From a virus (Duplodnaviria; Heunggongvirae; Uroviricota; Caudoviricetes): DNA of 13,205 nucleotides. The stretch lies in the IMG/VR virus record IMGVR_UViG_2671180849_000011; one strand, 5' to 3'. Made by a program: the position numbers and the translations under genes. Position 1 is the first letter of the stretch. Each line of letters opens with the position of its first letter. This document shows positions 4,335 to 13,005 of the stretch, piece by piece. The notes below the pieces were generated by a model that had not been told where the DNA came from, did not search any database, and saw nothing but the letters and a program-made list of their open reading frames with translations.

Positions 4335-5231
4335 TTATTTAAACTCTAAAATGCCTTTTTTATTTTTTCTAACATTTCTCCACAATATTTCGGGATAATC
4401 TCCGCAGGTTTTATCTAACAATATTTCGAATCCCATCCCAATAAGCTTATTTGCAAAAATAAAAACAGGTCTGGTTAAATGCCAGTATTCTTCCGGTTTC
4501 CAGATTTCACCCTCTATTTTCCCTTTATGTTGGCTTACCTCTTCTGCGGTGTAAAAATCCTCCTGAATCTTTGACAAAAGGATCGGGCGACGTTTGTTTA
4601 AATCTTTGTATTTGCTTTCCCACAGTGATCGCATTATGCCTTTAGCCTCACTCTCACCCAGGACAATCCAGCCCCCATCGGTTACATCTTTCACAGGACG
4701 GCCCCGGCGTGGCTTGTCACTAACAGCGTTAATTTGAGGCGCTTTAGTGTCTTGGGTAGGCAATTGCACCACCTTAGCCTTTTTAGCTTGCTGTGTGGCT
4801 TGTTTTGGGGCTTCTTGCGGGTGTTTCTCTTCACTACCTGCATTGCTCATAGGTTGTATTCCTTGAGCGTCACACATTTTGCAGATTTGAGAAGGAGTAA
4901 TTAACAGTTTGTAATGATTAGATTTGCCTTTACTTTTAATTACTGAAATAAGCCCGGCATTTTCCAGAGTTTTGATAGATTCAATGATTTTTCTATCACT
5001 CACACCACATATTTTTGCTAAGGTCTGCTCTGAGATAAATATTTCTTGCCCGTTTAAATGAAAACCTGCCATTTTTCCATAGATTGTTACCTCTATCAGG
5101 TCTAAATTAAATCGCTCTTTTGTTTTTCCAGTCTTTTTATTAGCAATTGTTGTTGCTACTGGTTTATCAAAAGTATACTGAATGAGGCGTTCGAAATGGG
5201 GATTAAAAACCTCCCCGTAATTACTTGCCAT
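4335..5231 (-). CDS. winged-helix DNA-binding protein (298 aa), replication-initiator-like or antirepressor-like
   Basis: ATG at 5231 preceded by GGGGGA; N-terminal wHTH-like segment ISEQTLAKICGVSDRKIIESIKTLENAGLISV; central P/Q/K/A-rich linker with KPRRGRPVK (AT-hook-like); architecture recalls lambda O-type initiators (from memory, unverified). Confidence 0.5.
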   Translation of the reverse strand: MASNYGEVFNPHFERLIQYTFDKPVATTIANKKTGKTKERFNLDLIEVTIYGKMAGFHLNGQEIFISEQTLAKICGVSDRKIIESIKTLENAGLISVIKSKGKSNHYKLLITPSQICKMCDAQGIQPMSNAGSEEKHPQEAPKQATQQAKKAKVVQLPTQDTKAPQINAVSDKPRRGRPVKDVTDGGWIVLGESEAKGIMRSLWESKYKDLNKRRPILLSKIQEDFYTAEEVSQHKGKIEGEIWKPEEYWHLTRPVFIFANKLIGMGFEILLDKTCGDYPEILWRNVRKNKKGILEFK

Positions 5232-5244
5232 AGTTCCCCCACAG

Positions 5245-5460
5245 TTATTTATTAATGTTGTTGGTGTATTTAGCCAGCTCACGCTCAAGGCGGAGACGAT
5301 TCAGTTCTAAAATTGCCGCTTCAATGTGTGGATATTCTCCTTTGTGTTTACGAATAAATGCATAAACGGAAGTTTTTCGAAAGTTACCTTTAAGCACGTT
5401 CTCGACGATTTCGTCAGTAGTCCAGTTTACCAGCTGGCTTATCGGTCCGGTTTTAGCCAT
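5245..5460 (-). CDS. hypothetical small protein (71 aa)
   Basis: ATG 5460 preceded by SD AGGAGA at 7-nt spacing; stop 13 nt before the next start; basic, possibly DNA-binding. Confidence 0.5.
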   Translation of the reverse strand: MAKTGPISQLVNWTTDEIVENVLKGNFRKTSVYAFIRKHKGEYPHIEAAILELNRLRLERELAKYTNNINK

Positions 5461-5592
5461 GATTCAATCTCCTGTTAGCTCACTAACCTGTGCGATATAT
5501 GGTTAAAAAGAAACGGGAACTTAAGACAAGCCCCCGCATTTTTGTTTAAGGAAATTCACTATGATGAGAATTACCCTATGATTTATATTTTA

Positions 5593-5742
5593 TCAGCTAT
5601 TTGCGAGATTGTCAACAATCTTTTTGTATTTATCTATCATTTTTTCTTCAAGGTTGTCGATTGCAGCTACTCCGGCTATGTAGGCAACACCGCACCACAG
5701 TACAGCCAGGTTGATGATCGCTATAGCGTCGCTCAGTTCCAC
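5593..5742 (-). CDS. small single-pass membrane protein (49 aa, GTG start), not in ORF track
   Basis: GTG 5742 preceded by GGAGG at 5-nt spacing; translation VELSDAIAIINLAVLWCGVAYIAGVAAIDNLEEKMIDKYKKIVDNLANS is one hydrophobic helix plus charged tail; stop TGA 5593-5595. Confidence 0.3.
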   Translation of the reverse strand: MELSDAIAIINLAVLWCGVAYIAGVAAIDNLEEKMIDKYKKIVDNLANS

Positions 5743-5786
5743 GTTGACCTCCGGATCTGTTTCTCCCACTATCTATAATCTTATCA

Positions 5787-5808
5787 TATTGACAACCAAT
5801 TGTCAATA
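5787..5808. promoter_or_regulatory. palindromic operator overlapping candidate leftward promoter
   Basis: Perfect inverted repeat TTGACAA (5789-5795) - CCAA - TTGTCAA (5800-5806), arms extend to 9 bp; on the - strand TTGACA, 17-bp spacer, TAAGAT; a third half-site TTGTCAAT at 5929-5936. Confidence 0.4.
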
Positions 5809-6424
5809 GGAATCATTATCATTTAGGCGAGCTATAGGTACAAACAAGTCCACAGCAAAGGGGTAAGCATTATTAATGGCCCCTACCGTGTCAAAACCAA
5901 AGTCACTTATAGCATTTATGCAATAAGATTGTCAATGGCCCACAAGGGAGGGAGAGCACTTTTTGCCTTAAGCGCTCTAAAATCGATTCTAACGCGATTT
6001 AGAGGTCAGGTAATGCAATTGCACTACTCACACAAGTTAATGCAGCCAGAAGGCCATTTAGGGGCCTTATTTTCGATTTCTGAGCGTCCTGTTACGTGTG
6101 TGCATACACGGGCGCGCGGAATCCCTCGCTTAAACGGTCCGGATTGGAAACAGAAGTCTCTTATCCGGACTCCACATTATATAGCTACGTGCTATCGCAC
6201 TACGCTACCCACACACAGGCCGACGTAGTCGGTTTAGCTGTATAGCTAAAGTCACAGAGTGACCCACACACAGATTGCCTAAAGAGTCGCTAATGCTCTT
6301 TAGGCTTTCATTTGTGGGTTAAGCTTTTCCCTTAGAAAACCTTCCCCACTCTCTGATCCCTCCCCATTCCCCTTGGGGGGTTAGGGGGGGATCTGTTGTG
6401 TGATCTATTAATTTATCTATTAGA

Positions 6425-6645
6425 GTGAGAAATTTTCAGGGGTACTAGTGAGAAATCTTCGGTAGTAGTGGTGAGAAATTCTCAGGGGTGTGGGTAGGTA
6501 TGGTGGTTAAGTAGTGAGAAATCTTCAGTAGTTAGAGGCTGTGTATCATGGGGGCAATGACTGCAAAACGGGAAAGCATGACTGTATAAACACACAGGTG
6601 TGAAAATTCTTCACAGGTTAGCGACACCGGAAAAATCTTCAGTAG
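6425..6645. repeat. iteron-like direct repeats, six copies of about 18 bp (consensus GTGAGAAATCTTCAG(G/T)(G/A)G)
   Basis: Copies at 6425-6442, 6448-6465, 6471-6488 (exact 23-bp phasing), 6514-6531, 6598-6617 (degenerate), 6630-6645; preceded by G-run GGGGGGTTAGGGGGGG 6375-6390. Confidence 0.6.
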
Positions 6646-6655
6646 TGTCTATCTG

Positions 6656-6753
6656 CATATGTGGGAAATACACCCTTATTGACCTATTTTGACTAGCAAA
6701 CCTCTCTCTTCTCTCTTTGCTCTGATTTCCTCTCATGTGTGGGAAATATGCAT
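6656..6753. repeat. second repeat family CAT(A/G)TGTGGGAAATA (two copies) flanking a CT-rich tract
   Basis: catatgtgggaaata at 6656-6670 and catgtgtgggaaata at 6734-6748; pyrimidine-rich tract 6701-6734; a related copy aaaatgtgggatata near 7047-7061. Confidence 0.45.
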
Positions 6754-7488
6754 ACCAACACCCGTTGATTTTATCAATAGCTATGTTGACCGGGCATCAT
6801 AAGTGTGGCCCCTGAGGCAGTCCATCCTTCCCTCACACAGGACAATGAATATATAAAGAACATGAAAGACTGTTCACACCAACACGCCGATAAATTGCCT
6901 GAAGAGGCTTACATGGGGTTATTGTTGTGTGGGTAATGGTGATCATGCTAACAGATTATGTTAATCAGATGTAAATTCCGATTTTGTGGTCTGCATGGAG
7001 CAAACTATACTGGTTAAATGATCAGGGGAATGACTACAAAACAATCAAAAATGTGGGATATAGCCATCTACACGTCTAATGTGCTGTGTGGGGTGTTAGT
7101 GCATGCTTACATGTAAGTCATTGATTTGAAGGGTTGGGAAAATTGCATTTAACATAATAGATCTTATCTACACTAATAAAGCGAACTACAAAATCTGATT
7201 TAAAAATCATGATCAGTGGGCACAGAATTTACGTACAGCCACCTGAATAAATAATGTGCACAACATACAGCAAAGCTTAAGAATTAACATAATAGCAACG
7301 TGGTCAGTAGTGGTGTGATATTTGAGAATTGTTAGAAGAAAAAAGGGAGGTGGGGGAGCGCCTGCCTGGCACCTCAGACGAGTTACCCATAAGCTCAAAT
7401 ACCGCTAATGGATATTTCTGACACCCACACCCAAGACCGCTTTCAGCACATAGCCATATAGCCACACAGGACCGCACAGGATGCAATT

Positions 7489-7698
7489 GTGATAACAAAA
7501 AATGGGGGTGTAATAGGGTAGGTCACCTTTCATCAAAATCACTTCTACGACGTTTCCAGAGTGATAACAAGAAAACAGGCCTCTAAGATTATCTGTGCCT
7601 CGTTTTTAGCTTTTTGTGTGGTTACCAGGTGAAGAGGAAATGTTAAAAACTGTTCATTTTATGCACAAACTAGTCAGGGTGATACCACAAAATGAGGT
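7489..7698. repeat. third repeat family GTGATA(A/C)CA-A-rich-GG, three copies
   Basis: gtgataacaaaaaatggggg 7489-7508, gtgataacaagaaaacagg 7561-7579, gtgataccacaaaatgagg 7679-7697; DnaA-box-like TTATGCACA at 7659-7667. Confidence 0.45.
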
Positions 7699-7887
7699 GT
7701 AAGAAATCCAGCTGCAGATAATCTTGCAGCCAGATTTTGCAGTTTTTTAGGGTATGTTAAATTTGACAAAAATAGAGAAAAGGCTTATTAAGCTAACTTA
7801 TTGATTTTATTAGTATTACGAAAAAGGGTTACACCCTCTCTCTTACTCTGTCAACCGGGCGGTTGTGGCATAAAACGGATTAAATCA

Positions 7888-7946
7888 ATAAATAGGCATT
7901 AAATAGGGGATAAATAGGGGTTAATTGAGGGATAAATAAAAAGGGG
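7888..7946. repeat. five tandem 11-bp phased repeats (A/T)TAAAT(A/T)GGGG
   Basis: Units start at 7888, 7899, 7910, 7921, 7932 (exact 11-bp period); last unit merges into the terminator stem. Confidence 0.55.
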
Positions 7947-7959
7947 CCGTGATGGCCCC
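7931..7959 (-). terminator. rho-independent terminator of the membrane-protein gene
   Basis: Stem GGGGCC (7943-7948) / GGCCCC (7954-7959), loop GTGAT; - strand tail TTTTTATTTATC (complement of 7931-7942); 8 nt past stop codon 7968-7970. Confidence 0.6.
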
Positions 7960-7967
7960 CTGGTAGG

Positions 7968-8498
7968 TCAGAACAGTTTTTTGCTTTTTCTCCAACTAAC
8001 GCCGCGTTTGCCTATGCTCAGCCAGCCGCCAGCGAATCGGGTACCTGCGGTAACACTAGCTCCCCTGGTACCTACATGTGCATAAATACCTGCTCCACTG
8101 CTACCACCGCTTCTACGGCTTTTTCCGCCATCGATATCAAGGAGAACACAGATCGCATTCCACCAAAAGCCGATCACCCATATTGCAAATGCTAAGCCTA
8201 AAACGCCCCAGGTGACCGCCCACCCTTCCAGACTAGTGGGGAAGTAGAAAGCATTGAGAACAGCATTTATAGGGCGGATCAGGAGAAAATCTATAAAACC
8301 AGTATCCACATGAAACGGTCCATTGCCGAACTTGCTACTGCCAATAAATAAGGTAGCAGGGTAAAAGAAGATAGCCATTGCCCAAGGGCCAATAAGCAGG
8401 ATAGTAGCCCCGAACTGTGCGGCCTCCTTAAAGAACATTTTTACTATTGCTTTAAAAAGCTTTTTGTTTTCTGATTCTTTATCTTTCTGAAATAACAT
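7968..8498 (-). CDS. polytopic membrane protein (176 aa) with Gly/Ser/Arg-rich C-terminal tail
   Basis: ATG 8498 preceded by AAGGGG; about four hydrophobic segments; own terminator; position and type fit a superinfection-exclusion or abortive-infection moron (inference). Confidence 0.6.
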   Translation of the reverse strand: MLFQKDKESENKKLFKAIVKMFFKEAAQFGATILLIGPWAMAIFFYPATLFIGSSKFGNGPFHVDTGFIDFLLIRPINAVLNAFYFPTSLEGWAVTWGVLGLAFAIWVIGFWWNAICVLLDIDGGKSRRSGGSSGAGIYAHVGTRGASVTAGTRFAGGWLSIGKRGVSWRKSKKLF

Positions 8499-9336: not shown

Positions 9337-9365
9337 TTGACAATGTGAGTAAATACTGATATAAT
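9337..9365 (+). promoter_or_regulatory. perfect-consensus sigma70 promoter (TTGACA - 17 bp - TATAAT) with AT-rich upstream region
   Basis: TTGACA 9337-9342, exactly 17-bp spacer, TATAAT 9360-9365; AT-rich 9305-9335 (UP-element-like); faces the capsid genes. Confidence 0.65.
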
Positions 9366-9373
9366 ATACAGTA
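9354..9373. promoter_or_regulatory. LexA-type SOS box overlapping the -10 element
   Basis: TACTGATATAATATACAGTA matches the E. coli-type consensus TACTG(TA)5CAGTA at all ten flanking positions with an AT-only core. Confidence 0.45.
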
Positions 9374-9508
9374 TACCGTGAATCATTTAGCGAAGGTGGT
9401 TTACCGTATTTTCCTCCAAAGTAACGGCGACCAGGTAGCGGTGCCGCCTTATAAATAACACTACCCTGATCATCGTTGAGTGGTCGATTAATTCTCCTAT
9501 TGGGCTAG

Positions 9509-9517
9509 TTATCCACA
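9509..9517 (+). promoter_or_regulatory. consensus DnaA box TTATCCACA inside the capsid-operon leader
   Basis: Exact 9-mer; also the 5' arm of an inverted repeat CCACACAG (9513-9520) / CTGTGTGG (9539-9546). Confidence 0.3.
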
Positions 9518-9845
9518 CAGTTTTCTTTTGCGGGTTTTCTGTGTGGGTAGCTATCCCGAAAGGTATTTCCCCGCTGATGTGACCGCAGCCTGAACTGATT
9601 CGGGGGAGTGCCTTTCGTGATAGTGCTCTCTAGCAACCGTAACCATGCAGTGAACTATCAGCCAACTGTTGTTGGTTTTCCCCATATGGAATAGCCCCCG
9701 CTTGGACGGTGCGGGGCTATCTCCCTCTCCTTATATCAATCCCCCTTTAGATTTCCGGCATAACTTTTCGGCCCGAGCCTGTCGTGGTTTGAGAGGTTAT
9801 ACCTGAACCCTTTGAGGGGAGTTAATTTAAATCGCAGGTGATCAA

Positions 9846-12458: not shown

Positions 12459-12913
12459 GTCCGAAAGTCCGTTGCACCATAGACAAGCGCATGATGGATA
12501 AGCTGCATAAAGAGCTCTCACAGATGGAAGGTGTAGCGGTTGGCTGGGATGACGGGAAACACTATAGCGGCCTGAATTACGCCACACTGGCAGCAATTCA
12601 TTCTGAGGGGTGGGGTGATCTGCCTAAGCGCTCCTTTATGGAATCTGCCCACGCAGCAATGCTCTATGAGAGCCTGAGACACACAAAAGCCCTGATTAAT
12701 GCAATCGTAAAGGGTGGGAGCTCTGAGGCCGTCAGGAAGCGAATAGGCAAGCGATACGCCGACATTCTGGAGACTATCCTGATTAGTGGGCAATTCAGCA
12801 ACAACAAGGTTTCCCCACAATGGGCAAGCTATAAAGGCTTCAATGATGCCATGCGCCACTATGATGATTTGATCGGTGCAATCAAATACTGGTCAAATGT
12901 GGGGAGAGGTTGA
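12455..12913 (+). CDS. hypothetical protein (152 aa), translationally coupled
   Basis: ATG 12455 overlaps upstream stop (ATGA); GGAG 8 nt upstream; no recognisable motif. Confidence 0.55.
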   Translation: MSPKVRCTIDKRMMDKLHKELSQMEGVAVGWDDGKHYSGLNYATLAAIHSEGWGDLPKRSFMESAHAAMLYESLRHTKALINAIVKGGSSEAVRKRIGKRYADILETILISGQFSNNKVSPQWASYKGFNDAMRHYDDLIGAIKYWSNVGRG

Positions 12914-12929
12914 AAAGAGGTAATAGTGT

Positions 12930-13005
12930 TCTTTTGAGGCCGTAGTGAGGCTAATCACGGTCCGGCTTAAAAAAGACAATAGGATGTCTTTTGAGGCCGT
13001 AGTGA
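12930..13005. repeat. two copies of a 19-bp direct repeat TCTTTTGAGGCCGTAGTGA
   Basis: Exact copies at 12930-12948 and 12987-13005 (57-bp spacing), similarity extends upstream (AATAG..); 17 nt after stop of the 152-aa gene. Confidence 0.5.

Follow-up and report, generated by a model that had tools for sequence, protein, structure and literature searches.

A gene-free, modular interval in a family of small Escherichia coli plasmids: a probable cis-acting replication and maintenance region with motif kinship to rV5-like phages

The interval and the plasmid that carries it

The window analysed here is the whole 13,205-bp stretch of the virus record IMGVR_UViG_2671180849_000011, and the subject of this study is its interval 5810–7965. 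For this interval, an initial annotation made from the letters had reported about 2.1 kb without a credible open reading frame (ORF) and had proposed a replication origin, partition or regulatory hub and possibly a long structured RNA. The interval lies between a pair of divergent promoters and a leftward gene (7968–8498). The leftward promoter of the pair is predicted to drive an operon consisting of genes for proteins of 49 and 71 residues, the replication protein Rep (4335–5288, minus strand) and tail genes. Comparative sequence analysis identifies in the interval an apparent Rep-matched iteron origin, hairpin modules, a dif-type core, about 510 bp of constrained DNA and a kinship in motifs with the ORF-free region of rV5-like phages. 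The coordinates of the individual features are given in Table 1.

The window is a complete circular replicon, with an end-to-start junction that is contiguous in nine relatives at 97–99.7% identity. It was assigned to a family of 13.2–14 kb non-mobilizable E. coli plasmids, five of which are present in PLSDB and seven in complete RefSeq genomes, while draft assemblies and a Hadza gut metagenome contain further copies; the isolates are of human, bovine, pig and chicken origin. The family comparison covers 19 distinct members. No close relative outside the family was found among GenBank phages (megablast and blastn), in IMG/VR (by capsid protein or DNA word) or among other plasmids and E. coli chromosomes. 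The plasmid capsid family is restricted to E. coli contigs of about 13 kb, and the sole 81% relative (L009) has a sequence that stops before the interval. A literature search found nothing on this plasmid family or on satellites of rV5-like phages.

The plasmid encodes a tape-measure protein (TMP) with chaperone-like and tube-like genes upstream, a small HTH_7 protein, a major capsid protein (MCP), a Dit-like 'tail tube initiator' and Rep, which is a lambda-O-like/HTH_36 replication initiator. Portal, terminase, sheath, baseplate and lysis genes were found neither by gene annotation nor by protein profile comparisons. The closest phage homologues of four plasmid proteins are all in rV5-like virulent myoviruses (Vequintavirinae), with sequence identities of 51% for Dit, 45% for the head-tail-region protein g152, 26% for TMP and 24% for MCP, and the plasmid gene order mirrors the rV5-like structural module.

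The absence of a credible ORF is confirmed. No ORF in the interval reaches 100 residues, and the longest (99 residues; 5929–6228, TTG start) lies within an indel-rich, cassette-swapped zone. Stop codons number 39–54 per frame in all six frames, compared to 46±6.7 in shuffled sequences, which corresponds to random density. X-masked six-frame translations of 6700–7965 gave no Pfam or PHROG match, none of the relatives has an annotated coding sequence there, and a gap of 2.1–2.6 kb is kept in all 19 members. An intact gene across the interval, which would have made the window's copy a decayed one, was found in none of the relatives, and a pseudogene is excluded by the random stop density, the lack of a six-frame profile match and the lack of an intact homologue.

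Sequence diversity was calculated for the 13 members with full data, using four-fold synonymous sites of eight genes as the neutral reference (0.108, compared to 0.022 at codon positions 1 and 2). About 510 bp of the interval have a diversity of 0.012–0.036, and are thus as constrained as codon positions 1 and 2. It is exceedingly improbable that, apart from the origin, the interval is functionless, whether as decayed coding sequence or as neutral filler. The segments 6776–7146 and 7175–7316, which evolve at or above the neutral rate, would be expected of filler; however, the stop density, the empty profile searches, the retention of the gap in every member, the 510 constrained bp and the specific motif relationship to a conserved phage region (see below) all argue against it.

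Table 1. Features and conservation of the interval 5810–7965 and its borders, in order of position.
Feature	Position	Strand	Basis or diversity
Divergent sigma-70-like promoters with likely operator	5778–5816	both	consensus match
Segment above neutral, sub-blocks swapped between members	5810–6699		diversity 0.15–0.31
Swappable hairpin cassettes, each ending CCCACACA	5955–6305	both	cassette mosaic; diversity 0.15–0.27, above neutral
Terminator-like hairpin AAGGCC/GGCCTT with T-rich tail	6050–6080	plus	stem conserved, tail replaced in some members
Three-hairpin module: GGCCGAC-GTA-GTCGG, TTAGCT-GTAT-AGCTAA, GTCAC-AGA-GTGAC	6207–6273		folding and covariation
Terminator-like hairpin, perfect 11-bp stem and 7-nt loop, then TTTCATTTGT	6277–6305	plus	identical in 11/19 members
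C-rich tract, then G-run GGGGGGTTAGGGGGGG; long imperfect hairpin by the origin	6326–6391	both	z −6 to −9
AT-rich patch, candidate DNA-unwinding element	6390–6422	plus	80% AT at 6400–6424
Iteron array, ~22-bp units AGTGAGAAATYYTCAGGGGTA with palindromic core GAGAAATTCTC	6423–6646	plus	repeat family D1
Two CATrTGTGGGAAATA boxes flanking the pyrimidine-rich tract 6701–6734 (part of 6656–6775)	6656–6670, 6734–6748	plus	
Segment with constraint like protein-coding positions	6700–6775		diversity 0.036
Segment neutral or faster	6776–7146		diversity 0.136
Putative dif/cer-type Xer core AGTGTAGATAA-GATCTA-TTATGTTAAAT	7147–7174	minus	XerD arm 11/11 to E. coli dif
Segment neutral or faster	7175–7316		diversity 0.18
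Segment with constraint like protein-coding positions	7317–7374		diversity 0.012
Patch collinear with phage 91,576–91,690, starting with the 18-mer GATATTTGAGAATTGTTA and ending GATATTTCTG	7317–7425	plus	E=0.008
Hypervariable island	7375–7399		diversity 0.197
Tightly constrained block, constraint like protein-coding positions	7400–7775		diversity 0.029 vs 0.108 at four-fold sites
IHF-consensus match, AATCAATAAGTTA fits WATCAANNNNTTR	7794–7806	minus	read from sequence
Four ATAAATAGGGG-like repeats with 11-bp phasing	7888–7931	plus	repeat family D2; variable among members, diversity 0.12
Intrinsic terminator of the leftward 176-residue gene (7968–8498)	7941–7961	minus	8-bp stem with 6 GC pairs, then TTTTATTTAT

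Iteron origin, promoters and hairpin cassettes

Repeat analysis recovered the iteron-like repeats and three other families, in agreement with the four families listed initially. Iteron units start at 6423, 6446, 6469, 6512 and 6626, with a degenerate copy near 6601 (five to six units), at spacings of 23, 23, 43 and about 86–114 bp. The geometry is conserved in 17 of the 19 members, and in every member the array begins directly after a conserved TTATCTATTAG. While the window has units of the type AGTGAGAAATYYTCAGGGGTA, other members have TGTGGGAAATTCCAACAGGTA, GTAAAATATTTTGACAGGTAGTA, CGGAAATATTTACCGGGGTA and more, and the iteron type follows the Rep allele, with Rep identities over the whole protein of 0.87–1.00 within a type and 0.27–0.82 between types. 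Rep, which is encoded 1.1 kb from the iterons, matches replication-initiator PHROGs (E=1e-9) and Pfam HTH_36. Within the left half of the plasmid, divergence is highest in Rep (0.25 at four-fold sites) and in the iteron zone (0.31), yet the 560 bp between them (5245–5810) are about 92% identical. Such joint diversification is expected when co-resident relatives select for new incompatibility specificities.

The AT-rich patch next to the array holds two tandem elements resembling the 13-mers of oriC (GATCTGTTGTGTG and GATCTATTAATTT) together with TTATCTATTAG, and a DNA-unwinding element at this position is plausible. The TGTGGGAAA sequence in the CATrTGTGGGAAATA boxes matches the DnaA box at eight of nine positions; only such 8/9 boxes are found near the array, and the consensus DnaA box is 1 kb away. 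The pyrimidine tract that these boxes flank had been described as 34 bp of pyrimidines. The tract exists, but only 31 of its 34 positions are pyrimidines and the pure run is confined to 6701–6718. The TGTGTGGGAAA sequence of 6656–6775 also occurs in the ORF-free region of the phages.

Iteron origins are textbook biology, and the comparative evidence for one at 6390–6650 is strong. Rep would bind the ~22-bp iterons and open the adjoining AT-rich patch. The initial suggestion of a replication origin and regulatory hub thus appears to be right for the left-centre of the interval, as supported by iterons of conserved geometry beside the AT-rich patch, the tracking of Rep by their sequence, and the divergent promoters with their operator.

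Of these promoters, the leftward one had been noted before and is present (TTGACA at 5806, a 17-nt spacer, TAAGAT ending at 5778 and a TG extension). It scores 10/12 with TG on the minus strand (5806 to 5778), and the plus-strand promoter at 5789–5816 also scores 10/12. Both overlap a perfect inverted repeat of 8 bp with 4 nt between its arms (ATTGACAA-CCAA-TTGTCAAT, 5788–5807), which is likely the operator. The mean identity of 5778–5816 across the family is 92%.

The DNA between the promoters and the iterons is rich in hairpins on both strands, with z scores of −3 to −9 over 5955–6305 and, from alifold analysis of 6200–6399, −6.6 on the plus and −8.8 on the minus strand. The hairpin plus T-run at 6050–6080 and the G-run at 6375–6390 were both found as first described. 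The three-hairpin module is bracketed by direct repeats ACCCACACACAG (6207–6218 and 6262–6273). The recurrent motif CCACACAG is real at these two positions and at 7462–7469, but only approximate at the other two positions listed for it (~6588 and ~6829). The module follows the consensus GCCC-GAA-GGGC or GCCGAC-GTA-GTCGGC, then TTAGCY-loop-RGCTAA, then a 5-bp stem with a GNA loop, and at least six sequence-distinct versions occur, in either orientation. In six instances that were compared, 100% of the positions are paired; 8 of 12 pairs carry changes in both partners, no pair carries a single-sided change, and none of 500 shuffles matches this result.

The cassette of the majority of the family is homologous to positions 131,682–131,936 of the rV5-like phage MaxTheCat (nhmmer profile, E=1.1e-22), and a second copy in the phage scores E=0.0045. 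The stem of its long hairpin is GCTGCC/GGCAGC in the plasmid and ACCGAC/GTCGGT in the phage, with three fully compensated pairs and a conserved 24-nt loop. As judged from these compensated changes, the hairpin modules are under selection for pairing. The homologous MaxTheCat segment overlaps an annotated hypothetical ORF of 56 residues (bas57_0219), which may be spurious, since its plasmid counterpart is structured, non-coding DNA.

The three-hairpin module is also present in three of seven rV5-like phages (L026, L028 and L031) as a precise 50-nt presence/absence insertion, at a point that matches position ~91,635 of MaxTheCat and has its plasmid counterpart at 6218–6263. A related two-hairpin version lies at the edge of the phage ORF-free region, and in the plasmids the module varies in copy number and orientation. 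The module therefore behaves like a miniature mobile element of both, and at least one module type appears to be a small mobile insertion common to the plasmids and the rV5-like phages.

DNA hairpins are favored over RNA because the compensatory changes contain no G-U intermediates, the signal is equal on both strands, and the loops are of the GNA type, which stabilises DNA mini-hairpins. The arrays between the origin and the divergent promoters may thus act as single-stranded DNA signals, for example in the priming or loading of each strand. In nearly every member, the motif CCACAC/GTGTGG lies mostly on one strand to the left of the iteron array and mostly on the other to its right (46 versus 8 and 26 versus 80 occurrences, respectively).

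The dif-like site, the conserved right half and flanking sequences

The putative Xer core at 7147–7174 has a 6-bp spacer and a XerD arm that is invariant in all 19 members; an exact 11-mer match to this arm is expected about 0.006 times in the window. The XerC arm matches at 7 of 11 positions and retains the inner ATAA. In the two most divergent members (L010 and L014), the core is AGTTCGCTTTA-CGCACA-TTATGTTAAAT, where the XerC arm again matches at 7 of 11 positions, now including the central CGC. A second sequence resembling the XerD arm, GTATGTTAAAT, is located at 7752–7762. The identification as an Xer site is made with moderate confidence, and host XerC/XerD would resolve plasmid multimers here. 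It makes sense that such a plasmid would need to resolve multimers, and the circumstantial indication is that one relative (L008, NZ_CP043822.1, 39,610 bp) was assembled as a head-to-tail trimer of the 13.2-kb unit, with small disruptions in some units. Possible readings of this trimer are a true multimer, a concatemer of packaged size and an artefact of assembly. The possibility that TGTGTGG is KOPS-like, with a polarity that converges on the dif-like site, was considered and rejected: this polarity roughly holds in the plasmid interval, but fails in the rest of the plasmid and in the phage region.

The right half of the interval (1.1 kb) contains the roughly 510 bp of constrained DNA. Its 18-mer GATATTTGAGAATTGTTA is identical in all 19 plasmids and matches at 17–18 of 18 positions in seven phages. 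A hairpin formed by 7347–7352 and 7370–7375 is followed on the minus strand by CCTTTTTTCTTC. Within the hypervariable island, a 16-nt patch (7382–7397) shared by the window and one relative (L021) differs from the other 17 members, and no co-varying partner was found for it elsewhere on the plasmid. The block 7400–7775 contains two copies (7489 and 7679) and a half copy (7561) of a repeat of about 28 bp (GTGATAmCAmAAAATGrGGTGTAAkA), a consensus DnaA box (TTATGCACA, 7659–7667), and a hairpin (GCTGCA/TGCAGC, 7711–7730) followed by T6 at 7743–7748; the block as a whole gives no fold signal. An IHF-like element, AAGCTAACTTATTGATTTT, occurs at 7790–7808 and again at 237–255, just past the tape-measure gene.

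The published map of the rV5 genome shows a 'non-coding' box between ORF 163 and ORF 164, which is left unexplained there (PMC3606486, Figure 2). In MaxTheCat, the corresponding ORF-free region (2.5–2.6 kb; 90,051–92,584) lies between convergent gene blocks. It is present in 122 phage records at 89–96% identity and is more conserved than the adjacent gene. The right half of the plasmid interval (6700–7780) shares far more 9–11-mers with this region than with the rest of the 135-kb phage genome: of all 2.5-kb phage windows, the four with the most shared k-mers lie in it (z 5–6), and the excess over dinucleotide shuffles has z scores of 6–11 and exceeds all 300 of 300 shuffles. For the block 7400–7775, the z scores of k-mer sharing are 4.4–10.8. 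No k-mer excess was observed for the control regions, namely the left half of the plasmid interval, 7780–7965, another intergenic region and two coding controls.

The shared words include GATATTTGAGAATTGTTA, TGTGTGGGAAA, TATTATGTTAAAT and TGCCTGAAGAGG, and the TGTGTGGG boxes and TATGTTAAAT are common to the constrained block and the phage region, in which TGTGTGG is about nine-fold enriched. The 18-mer and GTATGTTAAAT have the same relative order in both, at a distance of 435 nt in the plasmid and of 388 nt in the phage. The phage region also contains a perfect dif-type site (GGTGCGCATAA-TGGGTA-TTATGTTAAAT, 91,429–91,456), of which both arms match (22/22) and are invariant in seven phages, as well as a cluster of ATAGTTGCC inverted repeats (90.70–90.90 kb) that is 100% conserved. 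BLASTN at E≤1e-5 finds no plasmid match to the region. At the level of sequence motifs, these data establish a specific relationship of the right half to the ORF-free region of rV5-like phages.

Three further candidates were rejected in the course of this comparison. An FtsK-gamma-like activator beside the phage dif site is not supported, since the GenBank label 'FtsK' on an 87-residue protein there has no support from Pfam and this protein is unrelated to the plasmid HTH_7 protein. The rV5 late-promoter-like motif TggTAaAAtA is not enriched on the plasmid, and the phage 'repeat_region' annotations are internal repeats of 31–41 bp rather than terminal repeats.

The kinship with the phage region could also be read as mainly a packaging signal of the pac or cos type, copied from a helper phage, with the dif-like sequence as part of that signal instead of an Xer site. 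In favor of this reading, the plasmid has capsid and tail genes without terminase and portal, and it has the invariant 18-mer and TATGTTAAAT in common with the phage region, within which several GenBank phage records have their start or end. Also in its favor are an IHF-like site, three TGATCA hexamers and the existence of a 39.6-kb trimer. However, the record ends are spread over four positions and may be arbitrary, the annotated phage repeats are short and internal, and the phage site matches dif in both arms, for which a terminase site has no reason. This packaging reading is therefore regarded as unlikely.

Constraint without an ORF raises the possibility of RNA. Over 6550–7600, neither the single sequence nor the 19-member alignment folds better than background on either strand (z about 0), and a covariance-model search gave no Rfam match in the interval (E≤1); the long structured RNA proposed initially is rejected for 6550–7600 on these grounds. 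No Rfam match was found in five relatives either, and the homologous phage segment gave only a sub-threshold chance match. The fold signals that do exist, at 6050–6450 and 7600–8000, are equal on both strands. Smaller non-coding RNAs from the interval or its right half that regulate plasmid or helper-phage genes, with the block conserved as RNA, would fit the strong constraint, the plus-strand promoter at 5789–5816 and a weak one at 7228–7255, and the terminator-like hairpins on the plus (6050–6080, 6277–6305 and 7711–7748) and minus (7375 to 7335) strands. They would also fit the position of the hypervariable island directly 5′ of the minus-strand hairpin, as the seed region of a small RNA might be. 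Nevertheless, such RNAs are improbable in view of the fold and Rfam results, the lack of a strong promoter inside 6700–7965, the lack of a complementary partner for the island on the plasmid, and the hairpin covariation without G-U intermediates and with equal signals on both strands. In addition, the conserved content consists of short motifs that recur in the phage region in scattered order, as expected of protein-binding sites.

A partition function had also been proposed. No gene of the ParA, ParB or ParM type was found on the plasmid, which leaves the repeats at 7888–7931 as only a candidate. These repeats, or the TGTGGG boxes, would have to be the centromere of a partition system supplied in trans by the host, another plasmid or the helper. 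Short phased direct repeats do resemble ParR/ParG-type centromeres, a likeness for which parC of R1 is the basis; exact TAAATAGG occurs three times against 0.56 expected, and a stably inherited 13-kb plasmid needs some stabilising function. The enrichment is modest, with 4 of 200 shuffles reaching three copies, and the repeats vary in number and orientation between members and do not track the neighbouring variable gene. A partition centromere in the interval is thus highly improbable. The repeats were also considered as T4-type late promoters, for which there was no support.

A terminator had been placed at the right end of the interval. The intrinsic hairpin at 7941–7961 is genuine, but it is on the minus strand and belongs to the leftward gene, and it does not bound a transcript from the interval; it would instead insulate the interval from incoming transcription. 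The owner of this terminator, the dif-like Xer site and the kinship of the right half to the rV5-like ORF-free region had all been missed by the initial annotation.

The leftward gene itself is a cassette-exchange hot spot, with alleles of 173–239 residues and little nucleotide similarity among members (diversity 0.3–0.48); the version in the window has a weak membrane-protein-like Pfam match. Other variable hot spots are the part of the window encoding the C-terminus of TMP (401–800) and the region past the gene for a 152-residue protein (12801–13000), with 58–67% identity among plasmids that are otherwise about 95% identical. Between a perfect consensus sigma-70 promoter (9337–9365; TTGACA, 17-nt spacer, TATAAT) and the capsid operon lies a leader of about 480 nt that is highly conserved (9337–9845 with the promoter). 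The leader contains an inverted repeat with the same motif (TTATCCACACAG ... CTGTGTGGGTAGC, 9509–9552) and a consensus DnaA box, TTATCCACA. A terminator hairpin 3′ of the tape-measure gene (179–219) has a sub-threshold match to the Rfam family ctRNA_p42d (23.6 bits compared to a 50-bit cut-off); this identity was rejected, as the hairpin is simply a terminator. One member (L010, NTNY01000053.1) lies on a 30-kb contig with strA/strB-like aminoglycoside phosphotransferase, DDE transposase and tetR-type genes at 13452–21041, and the element can therefore acquire resistance genes.

Interpretation and comparison with known systems

Taken together, the interval is probably the plasmid's cis-acting replication and maintenance region, which would act as DNA and be built from modules. 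The origin alone would be ordinary. The unexpected part is the right half, which is conserved, non-coding, related to a phage and equipped with a dif-type site.

Several observations weigh against this reading or parts of it. At the origin, oriC-type 13-mers number 8 window-wide against 7.3 expected, which is the chance level, and the evidence for an unwinding element is therefore positional only; the co-variation of Rep and iterons could partly reflect their linkage. The module instances used for covariation were picked because they fold, so the percentage of pairing is partly circular, while the compensation at aligned positions is not. At the Xer site, the XerC arm is only a partial match, the TATGTTAA motif occurs four times (three copies lie beyond the core, nearby) and therefore might bind something other than XerD, and no accessory sequences of the ArgR, ArcA or PepA type were recognised, with no ARG-box-like sequence seen by inspection; plasmid sites of this class have about 180 bp of such sequences on the XerC side, which bind ArgR or ArcA plus PepA, and here 7175–7316 evolves at the neutral rate. 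A profile of the full phage region gives one local match of 27 nt on the plasmid (E=0.008), and pairwise plasmid-phage alignment yields anchor islands only, with unalignable sequence between the anchors. Since most of the right half cannot be aligned, what is shared is an architecture and a vocabulary of sites, and not end-to-end homology. The helper phage is presumed. Finally, a transcript of 250–490 nt from the promoter at 5789–5816 to the hairpin at 6050–6080 or 6277–6305 is possible, as are RNA roles for parts of the interval.

In the proposed replication and maintenance region, the block 7317–7775, with its 18-mer, TGTGTGGG boxes and TATGTTAAAT, could be a handle for the replication or packaging proteins of an infecting rV5-like phage. 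The proposal would fit a plasmid with rV5-like capsid and tail genes but without portal, terminase and lysis genes. With an rV5-like capsid protein, TMP, Dit and g152 but no packaging or lysis genes, the plasmid is therefore a candidate plasmid-borne satellite of virulent rV5-like myoviruses. Tentatively, it might be a free-replicating satellite whose right half is a functional miniature of the helper's ORF-free control region, with the same protein-binding sites and a dif-type site among them, and which the phage amplifies and packages into particles built in part from capsid and tail proteins of the plasmid; this is a possibility rather than the expected outcome. According to a 2025 review, only one plasmid satellite has been demonstrated, that of an inovirus (PMC12282955).

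The interval ties a small, uncharacterised family of E. coli plasmids to the rV5-like phages, which are widely used candidates for therapy and biocontrol, and points to shared cis-acting signals in a phage region that has been unexplained since the rV5 genome paper. If the satellite proposal is true, it gives a first function to a 'non-coding' region that more than 120 rV5-like phages have kept. If phage proteins do act on the shared block, no plasmid satellite of a virulent tailed phage would have been described before this one, and plasmid-borne genes could travel by way of lytic therapeutic phages. The perfect dif site in a virulent phage and the 50-nt three-hairpin module of phage and plasmid are both unexplained and experimentally tractable.

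The candidate origin resembles known iteron origins (pSC101, R6K gamma, P1 oriR and F oriS) and the lambda O/ori-lambda system in its ~22-bp tandem repeats (about two helical turns) with an AT-rich neighbour, in an initiator with an N-terminal winged-helix/HTH domain (PHROG 'replication initiation O-like', HTH_36), and in the joint diversification of iteron and initiator specificity. In contrast to lambda, the iterons, to which Rep is predicted to bind, are 1.1 kb from the rep gene and not inside it. In contrast to the known iteron origins, no clear high-affinity DnaA box abuts the array, and the origin sits in a 2.1-kb ORF-free region together with hairpin modules and a phage-related block.

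The hairpin arrays recall the G4- and phiX-type ssi signals and ssiA/ssiB of RSF1010, which are clusters of short stable hairpins by an origin, on opposite strands on its two sides. The presence/absence polymorphism of the 50-nt module is similar to that of miniature mobile repeats such as REP/BIME and the IS200/IS605-derived PATEs. Unlike these systems, the plasmid has no primase or HUH transposase.

The putative Xer site has an 11-6-11 core like chromosomal dif and plasmid cer and psi; its XerD arm is identical to that of E. coli dif, and its XerC arm retains GTG...ATAA. As with cer and psi, it is located on a small plasmid, for which a multimer is seen in one assembly. It differs in the 7/11 XerC arm, in having no recognised accessory region, in the three extra TATGTTAA copies nearby, and in having a perfect counterpart in a virulent phage, where dimer resolution is no obvious need.

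Compared to phage satellites (P4, PICI/cf-PICI and PLE), the plasmid is likewise a 13-kb element with its own replication module and a subset of the structural genes of one phage lineage, and likewise has no packaging and lysis genes. In contrast, it is a free plasmid without an integrase, carries tail genes (TMP and Dit) besides the capsid gene, and has a virulent 137-kb myovirus as its presumed helper.

The closest comparison for the right half is with the rV5-like 'non-coding' region. The two are mostly unalignable and only partly collinear in motif order, and the phage region has its own ATAGTTGCC inverted repeats (90.7–90.9 kb) in place of the Rep iterons of the plasmid. Nevertheless, both are ORF-free over 2.1–2.6 kb and conserved, the phage region as well as or better than its neighbouring genes, and both share motifs, a dif-type site and the three-hairpin module.

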